Below, one piece after another: positions 5,526 to 17,132 of a stretch of DNA of 49,925 nt. The translations under genes were made by a program, and so were the position numbers. The notes under the pieces were generated by a model. The model did no database searches, was not told the origin of the DNA, and saw nothing but the letters and a program-made list of their open reading frames with translations. Within the stretch, counting starts at the first letter, position 1; each line of letters opens with the position of its first letter. This DNA is from Parcubacteria group bacterium (GTDB lineage Bacteria > Patescibacteriota > Minisyncoccia > 2-02-FULL-40-12). The stretch lies in NCBI GenBank assembly GCA_016186395.1, contig JACPLU010000007.1:1-49925 (forward strand), in the 5' to 3' direction.

Positions 5526-7394
5526 TTATTGTTTATAAAAATACCAATTTAAAACCTTTTTTACAACTTGAGCCGGAAAATTTTCTCCATGACCACCACG
5601 TTCAATAAGTATTGTAACCGCAATTTCCGGATTCTCATACGGAGCGAATACGGTTAGCCAAGCGTTGGTTGACTGACCCTTAACCACCTCGGCTGAACCA
5701 GTCTTGCCAGCAATCGGAATTGGAAAATCCTTAAGCCTCCACACAGTTCCTTCTGTTACTGCGGCACGCATTCCTTCTTTGATAATATCTAAATTATTTT
5801 TGTTAACATCCAATTTCCCCAATAATTTTGGCTCCTTAGTTTCTATAACTTCGCCGTCAGATGTTACAACTTTTTTCACAATGTGAGGCTGAAAAAGATC
5901 ACCACCATTTGCCATTGCAACAGTCATACTATTCAACCACAGTGGAGTTACTAACAAATCACCCTGTCCTATAGAAATATTATACGTATCACCGGTATAC
6001 CAGCCCTCGCCTTTTTTAGCCTGTTTCCAATCGGGTGTTGGAATAAAACTTTCAATCTCACCGGGTAAATCAATACCTAACTTTTTATCAGCCAACGCAA
6101 GTTTAAGATATTGTACTATTTTTCCAATCCCCAAACCAGATATGTCATAATAACCGCCCCCAATAGTGTAAAAGTAGACATCAACCGAATTTGCAATAGC
6201 TTTAATCATATCAACCAAACCATGAACTTTCCAATCCCTGAAGGTATAAGTAATACTTGGATCGTATTGATTTTTAACAGTAATGCCCCCGTTAGCCAGA
6301 ATTTTCTTTTTAGGATCAATAATTTTTTCTTCTAAAGCAGCCAGAGCAACCAGGAGTTTAATTGTAGAACCAGGAGAAAGTCTACCAGAAATAACCCGAT
6401 TAAACAAAGGTCTATCTTTATTCTGAAAAATATCTTTAAAGAAATCTGGATTTGATCCTGCAATAAAATCGTTGTTATCGTAACTGGGAAAACTGGCCAT
6501 AGCCAACACAGAACCGGTTCTTGGATCTTGAATTACTGCTGCAGCTTTTTTAAGACCCAATTGAGCAAGAGCGGAATTTAACTCGTTCCACAAAACTCGT
6601 TGAAGATCTAAATCTATAGAAGTGACCAAAAAGTTACCCTCTTGTGGCGGATTTGTAACCACTTTTGAAACATCGTCACGACTAAACCTTACTTCTCCTG
6701 ATTGACCGCGCAAAATCTTATCATAATGCTCTTCCAATCCGTCTCTGCCACGAAGCTCTCCAAAACCATACAAACTATCTTTAAGTAGCTCTTCTTTAGA
6801 AACCTCATTAACATAGCCCAAAATGTGAGAAGATACCTGTCCAGAGGGATATTTTCTTCTAGTGTTCTCAACCGCTATTAAGCCCGGTAAATCAAAACCA
6901 ATAATAGTTTCTTTAAGTTTTTGATCATTTGTTTCAAACAATAAAATTGGATTTTCTGATTTTGACTCAAGAACCAAAGAAGCTTTAGAATCGGTTAGTC
7001 CCAAAACTTTTAAAAAAACCTCTTCATAGCTTTTTCGATCTTTAATCCCAAAGTTTACTTGAGAAGGGAAAAAAATAATATCGTATACCACCTCATTCCC
7101 AGCAAGAACCTTACCAGCAGTATCAAAAATTAAACCCCTTGGTGCATTTAAAGAATACTGTCGATATTGATTCTCAAGAGCAAGAGCTTTAAAATAATTG
7201 CCTTTTATGATTTGGAGTTGAAAAAGTCTGGCTACAAAAAGTCCGAGAACGCCTAAAATAATAATGGAAACTATAAATAAGGAGTTGCCACTTAAAGACT
7301 TAGAAAGTTTGGCTTCGTAATTTGGATTGTAAAAAAGAACCTCTTCTGGCTCTAAATCTTCTTCTATACGAGAAGGAACAGAATATTTCTTCAA
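5526..7394 (-). CDS. mrdA: penicillin-binding protein 2 (class B transpeptidase)
   Basis: 622 aa with an N-terminal TM, a PBP dimerisation domain and a transpeptidase domain (STIK, KTGS). Lies next to mreB. Confidence 0.85.
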   Translation of the reverse strand: MKKYSVPSRIEEDLEPEEVLFYNPNYEAKLSKSLSGNSLFIVSIIILGVLGLFVARLFQLQIIKGNYFKALALENQYRQYSLNAPRGLIFDTAGKVLAGNEVVYDIIFFPSQVNFGIKDRKSYEEVFLKVLGLTDSKASLVLESKSENPILLFETNDQKLKETIIGFDLPGLIAVENTRRKYPSGQVSSHILGYVNEVSKEELLKDSLYGFGELRGRDGLEEHYDKILRGQSGEVRFSRDDVSKVVTNPPQEGNFLVTSIDLDLQRVLWNELNSALAQLGLKKAAAVIQDPRTGSVLAMASFPSYDNNDFIAGSNPDFFKDIFQNKDRPLFNRVISGRLSPGSTIKLLVALAALEEKIIDPKKKILANGGITVKNQYDPSITYTFRDWKVHGLVDMIKAIANSVDVYFYTIGGGYYDISGLGIGKIVQYLKLALADKKLGIDLPGEIESFIPTPDWKQAKKGEGWYTGDTYNISIGQGDLLVTPLWLNSMTVAMANGGDLFQPHIVKKVVTSDGEVIETKEPKLLGKLDVNKNNLDIIKEGMRAAVTEGTVWRLKDFPIPIAGKTGSAEVVKGQSTNAWLTVFAPYENPEIAVTILIERGGHGENFPAQVVKKVLNWYFYKQ

Positions 7395-15268: not shown

Positions 15269-15502
15269 ATGAATGCAAATCAGAAGTCAGAACTCCAACA
15301 GCTCCTTGAAAAAAACGCATACGGCACTGGATTATCTCCAGAAAAACAGAGTCGCGCTCATCAGCTCATTGCCAATCCTGACTTATCGGAAAAAAATTGC
15401 TGGGTCTGTGAAATATCACGTCCTGACGATACTCAAAAAGCTATTTTTGATACCGGACTTTGCCAAGGACACGCCCGCTATGCGTTAGTCACAAGGAAAT
15501 GA
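15269..15502 (+). CDS. hypothetical small protein (77 aa, CxxC...C..H)
   Basis: A strong SD (AAGGAGG) lies 7 nt upstream of the ATG and an intrinsic terminator follows directly. No family recognised. Confidence 0.6.
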   Translation: MNANQKSELQQLLEKNAYGTGLSPEKQSRAHQLIANPDLSEKNCWVCEISRPDDTQKAIFDTGLCQGHARYALVTRK

Positions 15503-15597: not shown

Positions 15598-15626
15598 TTT
15601 ACAATCATTATTTGTCTTGATATTCT
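15598..15626 (+). promoter_or_regulatory. promoter P1 of the tRNA-like RNA
   Basis: TTTACA-N17-TATTCT. The predicted TSS (~15633) coincides with the first base of the 12-bp terminal helix. Confidence 0.5.
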
Positions 15627-15632
15627 GAATCT

Positions 15633-15710
15633 GCGGTGGGGGTGGCTTAGTTGCGGGATTCGGCTTACCATCCAGAGTCCTCGGGGTGCAAATCCCCGCA
15701 CCTCCACCGC
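15633..15710 (+). ncRNA. tRNA-like RNA resembling a tmRNA tRNA-like domain (acceptor helix, GGAUUCG box, T-arm, ACC end) with no anticodon arm or mRNA-like domain
   Basis: GCGGTGGGGGTG (15633-15644) pairs with CACCTCCACCGC (15699-15710). The T-arm is CGGGG-TGCAAAT-CCCCG (15682-15698). GGGATTCGGC resembles the tmRNA GGAUUCGAC box. Confidence 0.5.
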
Positions 15711-15734
15711 ATCAAAGGATATCCACATAACTTA

Positions 15735-15762
15735 TTGACAGAATTTTACATTTTGCTATACT
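15735..15762 (+). promoter_or_regulatory. promoter P2 (extended -10)
   Basis: TTGACA-N16-(TGc)TATACT. Near-duplicate of P3. Confidence 0.65.
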
Positions 15763-15768
15763 TAACGC

Positions 15769-15840
15769 AGATGGTAAGCCGAATCCGCTTCTAAGTTAGG
15801 ATTCCTGGAAAGCCGCAGAAATGCGGTTTTTTGGTTTTTT
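15769..15840 (+). ncRNA. ~70-nt small RNA; its 5' 28 nt are complementary to the internal loop of the tRNA-like RNA
   Basis: GATGGTAAGCCGAATCCGCTTCTAAGTT (15770-15797) is the imperfect complement of 15644-15672. Also has hairpin GAATCC/GGATTC and terminator CCGCA-GAAA-TGCGG plus a U-run (15811-15840). Confidence 0.55.
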
Positions 15841-15915
15841 AGTAACCAACCGCAGGCCTGCCGAAGCCTCGGCATAGGTGGGGATTTTCTTTATTTTAAG
15901 CCATTTTTTCAGCTA

Positions 15916-15943
15916 TTGACAAATTCTGTCAGTTTGCTATACT
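15916..15943 (+). promoter_or_regulatory. promoter P3 (extended -10)
   Basis: TTGACA-N16-(TGc)TATACT. The predicted TSS context cAGAT is the same as at P2. Confidence 0.65.
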
Positions 15944-15949
15944 TATTTC

Positions 15950-16165
15950 AGATTAGACCTTTAAACGGTGGGGTTGGCAGTGCCCCATAGGATCCGGATA
16001 AGCCGCGTGATGAAGCAACACGTGCCACGGGAGAAGTCTCGGGGTGGAAACAGGAGCTAGGAAGATCGTTTGGAGAATCTAGATGTACTCCAGGCGTGAA
16101 ACTTAGTCCTAACCCGAGAACTGCCAACATTTCATCCACCACTCTGTTGGTGGATTTTGCTTTTT
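15950..16165 (+). ncRNA. ~215-nt structured RNA of unknown class with its own promoter and terminator
   Basis: Helices GTTGGCAG (15973-80)/CTGCCAAC (16121-28), TCTCGGG (16037-43)/CCCGAGA (16113-19) and CGCGTG/CACGTG. Terminator ATCCACCA-CTCTGT-TGGTGGAT plus TTTTGCTTTTT (16134-16165). GC-rich in an AT-rich genome. Confidence 0.55.
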
Positions 16166-16175
16166 AGCGATACTA

Positions 16176-16194
16176 TCTCCCATGACACCTCTTA
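16176..16194. repeat. module-junction motif copy M2 (half motif)
   Basis: TCTCCCATGACACCTCTTA, the same TCTCCCATGACA core as M5. Lies directly after the terminator of the 215-nt RNA. Confidence 0.55.
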
Positions 16195-16288
16195 TACTAA
16201 CTGTCGCACAAGATGCATAATGCAGGGGATTGAGTTTAAATCGTATTCTGTGTATCCTATACATTAGTTATTTTCGTAGGAGGGTAAT

Positions 16289-16447
16289 ATGCCAGAAATA
16301 CTCGAGGGAATGAGATCAACATGTTGTAACGCACCTCTTTATATCGGCTATATGACTCCAATTGATACAGCACCGACTTTAGTATGCACCGCGTGCCATG
16401 AACGCGATAGAGAGGCAGAAAAGGAATACGACAAAACTCATATCTAA
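16289..16447 (+). CDS. hypothetical 52-aa Zn-ribbon-like protein (not in the ORF track, <60 aa)
   Basis: AGGAGGG SD 4 nt upstream of the ATG. Sequence MPEILEGMRSTCCNAPLYIGYMTPIDTAPTLVCTACHERDREAEKEYDKTHI. An intrinsic terminator follows. Confidence 0.55.
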   Translation: MPEILEGMRSTCCNAPLYIGYMTPIDTAPTLVCTACHERDREAEKEYDKTHI

Positions 16448-16455
16448 TCTTCCAA

Positions 16456-16477
16456 AAGCCTAAAACAGGCTTTTTTC
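16456..16477 (+). terminator. intrinsic terminator
   Basis: AAGCCT-AAAAC-AGGCTT followed by TTTT. Confidence 0.7.
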
Positions 16478-16705: not shown

Positions 16706-16918
16706 TTATCTAAAGTCTTTTTCATTTAAATTAGATTGGCGAAGAATAGACTTAAAAGTTCCAACTGGAATCTCTTTTTTATTTGCTGGGACTATAACTA
16801 TTAGTTTAATCCTGCCGGATTTATAAAATTTCATGTGACTTCCTTTTTGCGAAGTAAAAACAAAGCCCTTCTTTTTAAGGACTTTAATAATATAGTCGGA
16901 TGAATGAAGCTTAGACAC
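16706..16918 (-). CDS. hicA: HicA-family mRNA interferase toxin
   Basis: 70 aa with ...KKKGFVFTSQKGSHMKF...VPANKKEIPVGTFKSILRQ. The GTG start overlaps the hicB stop (GTGTCTAA). Confidence 0.85.
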   Translation of the reverse strand: MSKLHSSDYIIKVLKKKGFVFTSQKGSHMKFYKSGRIKLIVIVPANKKEIPVGTFKSILRQSNLNEKDFR

Positions 16919-17132
16919 GAGAATTAAAACTTAGTATTTGCGGTCTTTCAATTTTTGGAATAACTGGCTTTTTAGTATCCTCAAAATATAACTCTAGAGC
17001 TTCTTTTACGTTACTTACGGCCTCTTTTTGGCTTTTACCAAAGCTTGAAACATCAACATTCAAACATTGAGCAACAAAGTATTTACCCTCCTTCCAAACG
17101 ACTATTTTAAGATTTTGAATATATTTAAACAT
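16911..17132 (-). CDS. hicB: HicB-family antitoxin (UPF0150 fold only)
   Basis: 73 aa with ...VVWKEGKYFVAQCLNVDVSSFGKSQKEAVSNVKEALELYFED. Upstream of hicA and translationally coupled to it. Confidence 0.8.
   Translation of the reverse strand: MFKYIQNLKIVVWKEGKYFVAQCLNVDVSSFGKSQKEAVSNVKEALELYFEDTKKPVIPKIERPQILSFNSRV

Follow-up and report, generated by a model that had tools for sequence, protein, structure and literature searches.

A tmRNA-like RNA without an mRNA-like domain and its candidate antisense partner on a Parcubacteria contig

Results

Two small RNA genes lie side by side at the locus

The window analysed here is the whole 49,925-nt stretch of contig JACPLU010000007.1 from a Parcubacteria group bacterium (assembly GCA_016186395.1). 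Its ProRS finds matches at 63-68% identity that are named for Yanofskybacteria or Paceibacterota, placing this Patescibacteria member near those groups. At 15633-15710 on its plus strand, in a neighbourhood that includes the genes for UDG, a 77-aa protein and HicAB, it carries a short element, E1 (GCGGTGGGGGTGGCTTAGTTGCGGGATTCGGCTTACCATCCAGAGTCCTCGGGGTGCAAATCCCCGCACCTCCACCGC), which on the evidence of its sequence is best read as a transfer-messenger RNA (tmRNA)-like RNA that comprises a tRNA-like domain (TLD) only and has no mRNA-like domain (MLD). Beginning 60 nt downstream on the same strand is a predicted small RNA gene, E2 (~15769-15842), whose initial ~35 nt run in antisense to nearly all of the E1 5' half. 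This adjacent antisense RNA gene is the distinctive feature of the locus, and the original prediction, which described E1, missed it. A third unit on the plus strand, E3 (15916-16474), is described with the neighbourhood.

We scanned 185,579 species-representative genomes with a pattern that fixed GGATTCG, a T-loop and TCCACC and left the stems free. Nearly all of the 43 loci recovered are tRNA-Ala(CGC) genes or fragments or the 3' ends of ordinary tmRNAs, and one, on a contig of a metagenome-assembled genome (MAG; L045, assembly JAUYBE01), is a true homolog; a metagenome scan added a second, on a metagenomic contig (L056). All covariation counts below therefore compare three sequences (the window, L056 and L045), two of which are nearly identical. 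L056 and L045 keep the arrangement of E1 and E2 seen in the window, and homology among the three runs for ~210 bp, from the first base of E1 to the E2 terminator. The features of the pair, all on the plus strand, are as follows.

15598..15626 (+): weak promoter-like site of E1, TTTACA-17-TATTCT with TG extension, 9/12 positions
15633..15710 (+): precursor-level E1, a TLD plus a 5-bp leader/trailer helix, from the fold and from a helix invariant in three homologs
15638..15708 (+): predicted mature mini-tmRNA, TLD only, ~72 nt, with ends placed by tRNA/tmRNA processing rules
15638-15644 (+): E1 acceptor 5' strand
15645-15654 (+): E1 linker, the D-loop equivalent, 10 nt
15655-15661 with 15675-15681 (+): E1 inner helix
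15662-15674 (+): E1 13-nt loop
15682-15698 (+): E1 T-arm, with T-loop UGCAAAU at 15687-15693
15699-15705 (+): E1 acceptor 3' strand (G3:U70 = 15640:15702)
15706 and 15707-15708 (+): E1 A73, then CC
15719..15727 (+): spacer block ATATCCACA (TTATCCACA in L056, ~563-571, and L045, ~6945-6953), that is (T/A)TATCCACA, the DnaA-box consensus, from the alignment
15735..15762 (+): E2 promoter, TTGACA-16-TATACT with extended TG, 11/12 positions
15769..15842 (+): predicted E2 small RNA, ~70 nt, transcription start predicted at A15769, from promoter and terminator calls and conserved in L056 and L045
15770..15798 (+): E2 antisense core, pairing with E1 15643-15672, from the inverted match, duplex prediction and covariation
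15781-15786 with 15799-15804 (+): E2 internal hairpin, GAAUCC with GGAUUC, from the fold
15805-15834 (+): E2 intrinsic terminator stem and U-tract, from the terminator call

E1 is predicted to fold as a closed tRNA-like domain

The minimum free energy (MFE) fold of E1 has an energy of -42.9 kcal/mol (z = -4.21; 0/200 shuffles equally good) and consists of a 12-bp terminal helix (GCGGTGGGGGTG/CACCTCCACCGC, one G-U pair; the inverted-match listing gives 13 nt at 92%), an inner hairpin and a T-arm, CGGGG-UGCAAAU-CCCCG. The original prediction had placed this helix, the T-arm and the 3' end CACCTCC-A-CC correctly. When E1 is taken to start at G15638, the acceptor becomes a 7-bp helix (GGGGGUG/CACCUCC) with G3:U70 (G15640:U15702), followed by A73 and CC, and the outer 5 bp, GCGGU/ACCGC, become a leader/trailer helix. 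G3:U70, A73 and CC form the alanine identity set common to tRNA-Ala and tmRNA; A76 is not encoded, the base at that position being G (CCG). The T-arm (5 bp and a 7-nt loop) stacks on the acceptor, and a G does replace U55 in its loop, as had been noted; the same G occurs in the permuted tmRNA of L057, described below. The inner hairpin has 7 bp (GGGAUUC/GAGUCCU) and a loop of 13 nt (or 8 nt). The 37 nt between acceptor and T-arm were said to be unable to form D and anticodon arms, and they form neither; they are not unstructured, however, since they hold the linker and this 7-bp hairpin.

We then compared E1 with tmRNA and tRNA models. Of all Rfam families, RF00023 (tmRNA) has the lowest E-value on the short stretch (16.4 bits, E = 2e-5 for that search space), and its positions 1-374 align to 15638-15709 with 308 MLD positions deleted. 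Together with G3:U70, A73 and CC, this end-to-end alignment bears out the description of E1 as resembling a tmRNA TLD without an MLD. The alignment takes GCUUAGUUGC as the D-loop and GGGAUUC as a strand of a P2-like helix, so that the segment earlier taken for a D-loop box really is paired: GGGATTCGGC is present in the sequence, as claimed, and so is the GGAUUCG of the canonical box GGAUUCGAC, which in tmRNA stays unpaired and touches the T-loop and SmpB, but GGAUUC forms the 5' strand of the inner helix.

E1 thus shares with tmRNA the acceptor with G3:U70 and A73 and the T-arm stacked on it, and differs in having only the 13-nt loop where an MLD and tag open reading frame (ORF) would lie, in leaving no room within 72 nt for pseudoknots PK1-PK4, and in scoring below the gathering threshold; the absence of a tag ORF within the element, claimed earlier, is confirmed from the sequence. 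Against the TLD-only class, E1 has the closed 65-85-nt TLD of acceptor, short inner hairpin and T-arm with the MLD absent, but neither the unpaired canonical D-loop box nor the encoded CCA. A tRNA cloverleaf with a D-arm and an anticodon arm with a 7-nt loop is not formed, and neither ARAGORN nor Rfam RF00005 calls one. The mitochondrial family RF02544 (mt-tmRNA) is not among the Rfam hits for E1, in a listing that hides overlapping hits of the same clan, and RF04321 (permuted two-piece tmRNA) reaches 15-19.6 bits versus a threshold of 47, matching the T-arm and 3' strand only, with the coding piece absent. Over the 49.9-kb window, ARAGORN and Rfam at gathering threshold both report tRNA-Lys and tRNA-Val only; ARAGORN calls E1 neither a tRNA nor a tmRNA, and neither program finds a standard ssrA. 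We also considered a small toxic peptide encoded across E1 and rejected it (there is no ribosome-binding site, and the substitutions are not codon-patterned); a search for spurious ORFs over E1, with six-frame peptides against a 5.8-billion-protein collection, found none.

The -10 hexamer of the promoter-like site upstream of E1 ends 6 nt before the first G of GCGGU. A T-A-N-N-N-T hexamer stands equally distant from GCGG in the alignment of L056 and L045, which lends the E1 promoter weak support. Among the three homologs, the inner helix of E1 has a double compensatory change at 23:49, where G.U becomes U-A, besides one single change. The terminal 12-bp helix and the T-stem are invariant in all three loci; the homologs keep the acceptor/T-arm pairing, and because these helices do not vary they are uninformative for covariation.

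E2 is complementary to the 5' half of E1

The E2 promoter (with its TG) matches 11/12 positions in L056 and 10/12 in L045, and a terminator is called formally in both. In all three loci, the antisense stretch starts at the predicted +1 or +2 of E2; outside this stretch E2 is poorly conserved, and neither a reading frame nor a stop codon is common to the three sequences of E2. The spacer block that resembles a DnaA box sits ~7 nt upstream of the E2 -35 in all three modules; because DnaA-box 9-mers occur at chance frequency across the window, with no enrichment, only the conservation of this block is notable.

A perfect 17-nt complement joins E2 15770-15786 to E1 15656-15672 (2 matches to the 17-mer in the window versus 0.11 expected). 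Duplex prediction extends this pairing to 31-33 bp and -48 to -52 kcal/mol in each of the three genomes (z = -4.1; 0/200 shuffles equally good). In E1 it takes in the loop, the inner-helix 5' strand, the whole linker and the last part of the acceptor 5' strand, and the heteroduplex is preferred over the separate E1 and E2 folds by 5.6-11.6 kcal/mol. The complementarity with E2 and the TLD fold of E1 are mutually exclusive. In their own MFE folds, the E1 loop and the E2 5' end are both unpaired, and nucleation between a loop and a free end is the classic geometry of antisense RNAs. The locus thus has the features expected of an antisense pair: extended and conserved complementarity, loop-to-free-end nucleation and separately promoted RNAs.

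The pairing also appears to be maintained as the sequences diverge. The linker reads GCUUAGUUGC in the window and in L056 and ACGCAGUGUU in L045, and the difference is mirrored by changes in E2; overall the duplex contains two double compensatory changes (U-A to G-C and U-A to C-G), and two further changes are one-sided. Pairing holds in 98.6% of the duplex cells, versus 23-43% in a slid register, and cross pairs between loci are weaker (-36.5 and -41.9 kcal/mol), cognate pairs being more stable by 7-15 kcal/mol. At its non-Watson-Crick sites the duplex has G.U or U.G in five distinct positions and never A.C. Pairing between plus-strand transcripts predicts this pattern, whereas an inverted repeat decaying neutrally as DNA should yield the two kinds in equal numbers (roughly P = 0.03). 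With three homologs, and with a shuffle control that is not significant (60/500), we regard the covariation as suggestive rather than conclusive.

The module occurs in three unrelated neighbourhoods

The genes that flank the three modules are unrelated: those named above in the window, DUF6922 and a 23S-IVS protein in L056, and yidC-jag and a LamG-domain gene in L045, where dnaA-dnaN is ~2.5 kb away from the module. In L045, E1-E2 is bracketed by diverged copies, three in number, of the LamG-domain gene's 3' end (...RIYNRALSAAEI...; L045 6684-6729, 6777-6844 and 7128-7194), which suggests repeated recombination or insertion at that gene end. BLASTN searches of the module against phage and plasmid collections gave no match, nor did a viral scan with an E1-specific T-loop pattern.

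In the window, the gene upstream of E1 (15269-15502, +) encodes a 77-aa protein with a CxxC...CxxH motif and no Pfam match. Its 8 homologs, at 55-87% identity, yielded no further module homologs by synteny. This gene is always a lone plus-strand gene amid convergent or divergent neighbours, in varying contexts; in relatives that carry it, a convergent gene follows within ~100 nt and the RNA cluster is absent, pointing to a lineage-specific insertion. No phage or defence genes were found around the window module. A HicA toxin gene (Pfam 62 bits) with an overlapping HicB-like antitoxin gene lies 1 kb downstream of the RNA cluster (16706-17132, -), and in one relative (L006) a HicAB pair stands immediately upstream of the 77-aa homolog. 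A small GNAT-fold gene lies 2 kb from the module.

E3 begins with a promoter paralogous to that of E2 (TTGACA-16-TATACT), followed by a ~180-nt structured RNA with a terminator at 16134-16155 and then by a 52-aa Cys-rich ORF (16289-16447) with a ribosome-binding site and its own terminator. The unit has no Rfam match and is absent from L045 and L056. Neither its pairing with E1 (z = -1.6) nor its similarity to E1 (score 22; shuffle maximum 24) is significant, and with E2 there is likewise no significant pairing or similarity. We rejected a degenerate tmRNA at E3, which has no acceptor pairing with G3:U70 and whose 'UCCACCA' belongs to the terminator stem; E3 may be a cis-regulatory leader or another small RNA. 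Logan contigs of the source sample, SRR12113430, break at ~15701, in the E1 acceptor 3' strand, and resume at ~15914, at the E3 promoter, so that the E2 region is missing from those assemblies; this gap hints at strain-level heterogeneity within the module.

Further TLD-only and permuted tmRNA genes

The original prediction knew stand-alone TLDs from jakobid mitochondria only, a range that is too narrow. tmRNAs without a coding sequence (CDS) are described from mitochondria, from two plastids (~65 bp), from mycobacteriophage DS6A ('little more than the TLD') and possibly from Nasuia (PMC11915505, PMC4131195). In Patescibacteria, standard tmRNAs number 5252 in 6765 genomes, and three entries, from one species, are listed as 'Standard NoCDS' (PMC11915505). 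A TLD on its own 'strongly inhibits tmRNA, perhaps by titrating SmpB' (PMC4131195), and the SmpB-binding TLD construct of PDB 2CZJ, crystallised in complex with SmpB, joins the 5' 25 nt and the 3' 34 nt through a loop (PMC3985003), an architecture equal to that of E1. We found no description of an antisense partner of a TLD-only tmRNA in the literature.

Our scans add at least a dozen mini-TLDs of 65-82 nt on IMG/VR viral contigs, many within phage tRNA arrays and none called by ARAGORN. They carry G3:U70, a UGGAUUCGA box, one hairpin, a T-arm and CCA; L059, L061, L063, L066 and L071-L073 form one family, and L062, L065, L068 and L075 are further examples. They appear to represent a recurrent, under-annotated class of phage gene similar to that of DS6A. 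The longest antisense match near these other mini-TLDs is at most 9 nt, so the antisense partner sets the E1 family apart.

An independent mini-TLD lies on a Gracilibacteria MAG contig (JBAYNL010000017.1; L046 4537-4607, -); it matches RF00023 over its full length at 32 bits and has its own terminator, 23 nt replace the MLD, and a partial direct copy of the inner hairpin (GGAATCGTCACCC) lies ~100 nt downstream. Near it we found neither smpB nor an antisense partner, and a neighbouring gene encodes a 151-aa protein without a Pfam match. Closed TLD-only elements of ~80 nt, possibly in prophages, also occur in an Achromobacter MAG (L037) and, beside tRNA-Tyr/Lys/Glu, in a Bacteroidales MAG (L051). 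Two Actinomycetota loci, L015 (5554-5895) and L050 (149-605), hold an intact tRNA-Ala(CGC) gene followed by 2-3 tandem copies of its 3' two-thirds, spaced by 89 nt in L015 and similarly in L050, which resemble stacked integration-site scars.

Two loci, L057 (1361-1541) and L058 (797-~980), encode permuted two-piece tmRNAs that ARAGORN missed; they score 101 bits against RF04321 and 67 bits against alpha_tmRNA, with a tag that ends ...VALAA*. Both have the T-arm, G55 T-loop included, and the acceptor of E1. The T-arm 15-mer of L057, GGGGTGCAAATCCCC, is identical to that of E1, the acceptor pairing is the same, and one outer T-stem base differs. The unusual features of E1 are therefore compatible with a working TLD. 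We rejected a lineage link between E1 and tmRNAs of the candidate phyla radiation (CPR) by way of L057, a contig that looks viral: 0/10 of its proteins match NCBIfam, and the only matches are to PHROGs of unknown function.

Discussion

The E1 and E2 structures and the complementarity between them recur, conserved and covarying, in three genomes and contexts. We consider it about an even call that E1 is a TLD-type RNA regulated by a dedicated antisense RNA, E2, the two forming a ~210-bp two-gene module in a few Patescibacteria. E1 would be transcribed from its own weak promoter. By established tRNA and tmRNA biology, RNase P would then cut at G15638, a site that the coaxial acceptor/T stack places 12 bp away from the T-loop, the 3' trailer would be trimmed and CCA completed, and alanyl-tRNA synthetase (AlaRS) would charge the product by way of G3:U70 and A73. 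E1 cannot tag proteins because it lacks a template. By the precedent of engineered TLDs and of what has been proposed for the phage DS6A TLD, it would most likely draw off the partners of tmRNA (SmpB, AlaRS, EF-Tu) as a competitor or decoy, and less likely serve as a tag-less rescuer; for this decoy function, SmpB titration, charging and processing are all steps that we infer. Nearly all Patescibacteria carry a standard tmRNA, so E1 is probably an additional gene beside one, and a supernumerary decoy is likelier than a sole ssrA. E2 would control it by nucleating with its 5' end on the 13-nt loop and zipping up ~32 bp through the inner helix and the linker into the acceptor 5' strand, which would unfold the TLD and leave a long duplex that RNase III could cut, an off-switch with antitoxin-like logic.

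Several observations weigh against this account. The RF00023 score lies far below the gathering threshold (16.4 versus 47), and no smpB was found in the 49.9-kb window. The linker that serves as D-loop equivalent varies between homologs and the canonical GGAUUCGA box is base-paired in E1 instead of free, which together call SmpB binding into question. G55 is unusual for a T-loop; CCA is unencoded, and the leader pairs with the ACC end. E1 and E2 are not separated by a terminator, so read-through transcripts could fold differently; the centroid structure shows the long-range pairing. The shuffle control of the duplex covariation adds to these points. Finally, sequence cannot decide which of the two RNAs is effector and which regulator, and we infer the regulatory role of E2.

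In a stronger form of the decoy idea, which we think possible at best, the module is an all-RNA toxin-antitoxin or abortive-infection device: once synthesis of a labile E2 stopped, for instance through loss of the module or a phage-induced shut-off of transcription, E1, as a stable TLD decoy able to accept alanine, would sequester SmpB, AlaRS or EF-Tu and so shut down trans-translation, and the site resembling a DnaA box may couple E2 synthesis to replication status. It is somewhat less probable that E1 is the only tmRNA of the cell, an ssrA reduced to its TLD as in jakobid mitochondria, which would donate alanine to stalled chains untagged while another factor releases the peptide and E2 tunes its level. 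CDS-less tmRNAs do exist in mitochondria, in plastids and as the three 'Standard NoCDS' entries of Patescibacteria, the Gracilibacteria mini-TLD has its own terminator and a 32-bit tmRNA match, and no standard ssrA is seen in the window. Yet the window is a fraction of the genome, in a group in which standard tmRNA is near-universal; an essential RNA would not be expected at three unrelated loci and missing from relatives, nor would one expect its promoter to be weak, its D-loop equivalent to vary and a strong, dedicated antisense RNA to destroy its fold. The roles could also be reversed, E2 being an effector against the 5' half of the host's standard tmRNA or another target and E1 a stable TLD sponge that titrates it. 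Small RNA sponging by tRNA-derived RNAs is an established mechanism, the E2 promoter is the stronger of the two (11/12 versus 9/12), and the acceptor, D-loop and P2 region that E2 pairs with are what any related tmRNA would share. A sponge, however, would not need the acceptor with G3:U70 and A73, the T-arm and the compensated inner helix that E1 keeps, and E2 is poorly conserved beyond its antisense stretch, so that we find this reversal doubtful. More improbable still is a non-ribosomal alanine carrier, charged by AlaRS, for an aminoacyl-tRNA-dependent transferase of Fem/MurM-type peptidoglycan bridging or Ala-phosphatidylglycerol synthesis: at none of its three loci is the module accompanied by a Fem or MprF homolog, and the antisense partner is left unexplained, even though alanine identity without an anticodon arm and the GNAT-fold gene 2 kb away would suit such a role, and G55 and a variable D-loop equivalent recall non-proteinogenic tRNAs that avoid the ribosome.

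The remaining explanations deny the module its function as a pair of RNAs, or assign the pair another one. A non-functional relic, either a decayed ssrA fragment with an inverted partial duplication or an ssrA integration scar, comes to mind because tRNA and tmRNA genes are common integration sites, because our genome scan is full of tRNA-Ala and tmRNA 3' fragments, and because repeated gene 3'-end fragments flank the L045 module. We judge it quite improbable, since scars are direct repeats of the 3' part and not inverted copies of a 5' half, since three unrelated contexts each hold an intact module, complete with promoter, terminator and closed TLD and showing compensatory changes, and since a 5:0 bias towards G.U and away from A.C points to selection for RNA pairing. 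That bias also speaks against an element acting at the DNA level, such as an invertible switch or a replication or partition site, as the divergence of the repeat arms keeps RNA (G.U) but not DNA pairing. The perfect 17-bp inverted repeat does flank a 97-bp segment that holds the E2 promoter and the 9-mer resembling a DnaA box, and the L045 module does lie close to dnaA-dnaN; but the surroundings contain no recombinase gene, an origin is not indicated by the GC skew of the window, and the Logan break at 15701 is not at a repeat arm, leaving very little to recommend this view. Least probable of all is the split tmRNA raised in the original prediction, for which E2 or E3 would have to supply the MLD in trans, E1 being one piece. 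The permuted-tmRNA model does join the T-arm and 3' strand of E1 to the 5' end of E3 (15 bits), and E3 contains GCC GCG UGA UGA (Ala-Ala-stop-stop) after GGAUAA, 2-aa tags being known. All such matches lie far below threshold, however, and no tag ORF is conserved in E2 or E3: the three E2 sequences share no frame or stop, and E3, which is absent from the other two loci, shows no significant pairing with or similarity to E1. Pairing with E2, moreover, takes up the D-loop equivalent and the acceptor strand and so dismantles the TLD.

Fragments of tmRNA without a tag have so far been treated as curiosities of organelles and of one phage; here they are found on a dozen IMG/VR viral contigs and in CPR bacteria. 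Mini-TLDs as such were known already, and what is new is one family of them with a dedicated antisense RNA that covaries with the TLD. If the pair works as we propose, with E1 as the decoy and E2 as its off-switch, trans-translation, which is under study as an antibiotic target, would have an inhibitor or variant that occurs in nature and can be switched, and organisms with minimal genomes would have a regulatory module of two RNAs and no protein, which is rare. Should it moreover act as a toxin-antitoxin device, the pair would form an addiction or defence module aimed at ribosome rescue that needs no protein, and a TLD decoy, otherwise seen in phages, would for the first time be in use by a cell. 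With two RNAs of ~70 nt each, the system is testable.

Comparison with known systems

Of the known RNAs, the phage TLD-only tmRNAs (DS6A type and IMG/VR) are like E1 in having a closed TLD of 65-82 nt with a 7-bp acceptor, G3:U70, A73, an inner hairpin in place of the MLD and a T-arm, and the acceptor of the L059 family, GGGGGUG/CACCUCC, is identical to that of E1. The phage forms have an unpaired UGGAUUCGA box, a UUCRAUU T-loop and an encoded CCA (...CCACCA), whereas E1 has a variable linker, a buried GGAUUC, G55, CCG, the 5-bp leader/trailer helix and E2; E1 lies on a cellular CPR contig without nearby phage genes, whereas the phage forms often lie in tRNA arrays. The permuted tmRNAs (RF04321, such as L057) have nearly the same T-arm and acceptor as E1, and in them, too, the acceptor end precedes a second RNA segment. 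The acceptor strands of E1, by contrast, are contiguous in one closed TLD, and the downstream RNA is antisense and without a tag ORF.

The CDS-less tmRNAs of jakobid and oomycete mitochondria and of Mallomonadaceae plastids (RF02544) have, like E1, lost the MLD and pseudoknots and retain a TLD of ~65-70 nt (PMC11915505, PMC3985003). They are housekeeping RNAs that co-occur with imported SmpB, with no antisense regulator described, whereas E1 is bacterial, probably supernumerary, and behaves as a portable module. The 'Standard NoCDS' tmRNA of 9FT-COMBO-53-11 sp001772805 (3 genomes in the 2025 tmRNA database), compared here by its description only, comes from the phylum of E1, and the database authors report that the tag frame may be lacking. 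The species name implies ~53% GC, versus ~37% in the window, and a partner RNA goes unmentioned.

As a pair, E1 and E2 recall antisense control systems such as IS10 RNA-IN/RNA-OUT, R1 CopA/CopT, hok/sok (a type I toxin-antitoxin system), type VIII CreT/CreA and SdsR/RyeA, among which CreT offers an earlier example of an RNA toxin whose target is the translation apparatus. Common to these systems and to E1/E2 are a free 5' end that nucleates on a hairpin loop, pairing over ~30-35 bp, a strong promoter for the regulator, a structured and presumably stable target, and a compact, portable locus. The folding energy of E1 (-43 kcal/mol) and the difference between the E1 and E2 promoters hint, indirectly, at a possible division between a stable target and a labile neutraliser. 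Unlike those pairs, E1 and E2 lie side by side on the same strand without overlapping, and the target is tRNA-like rather than an mRNA.

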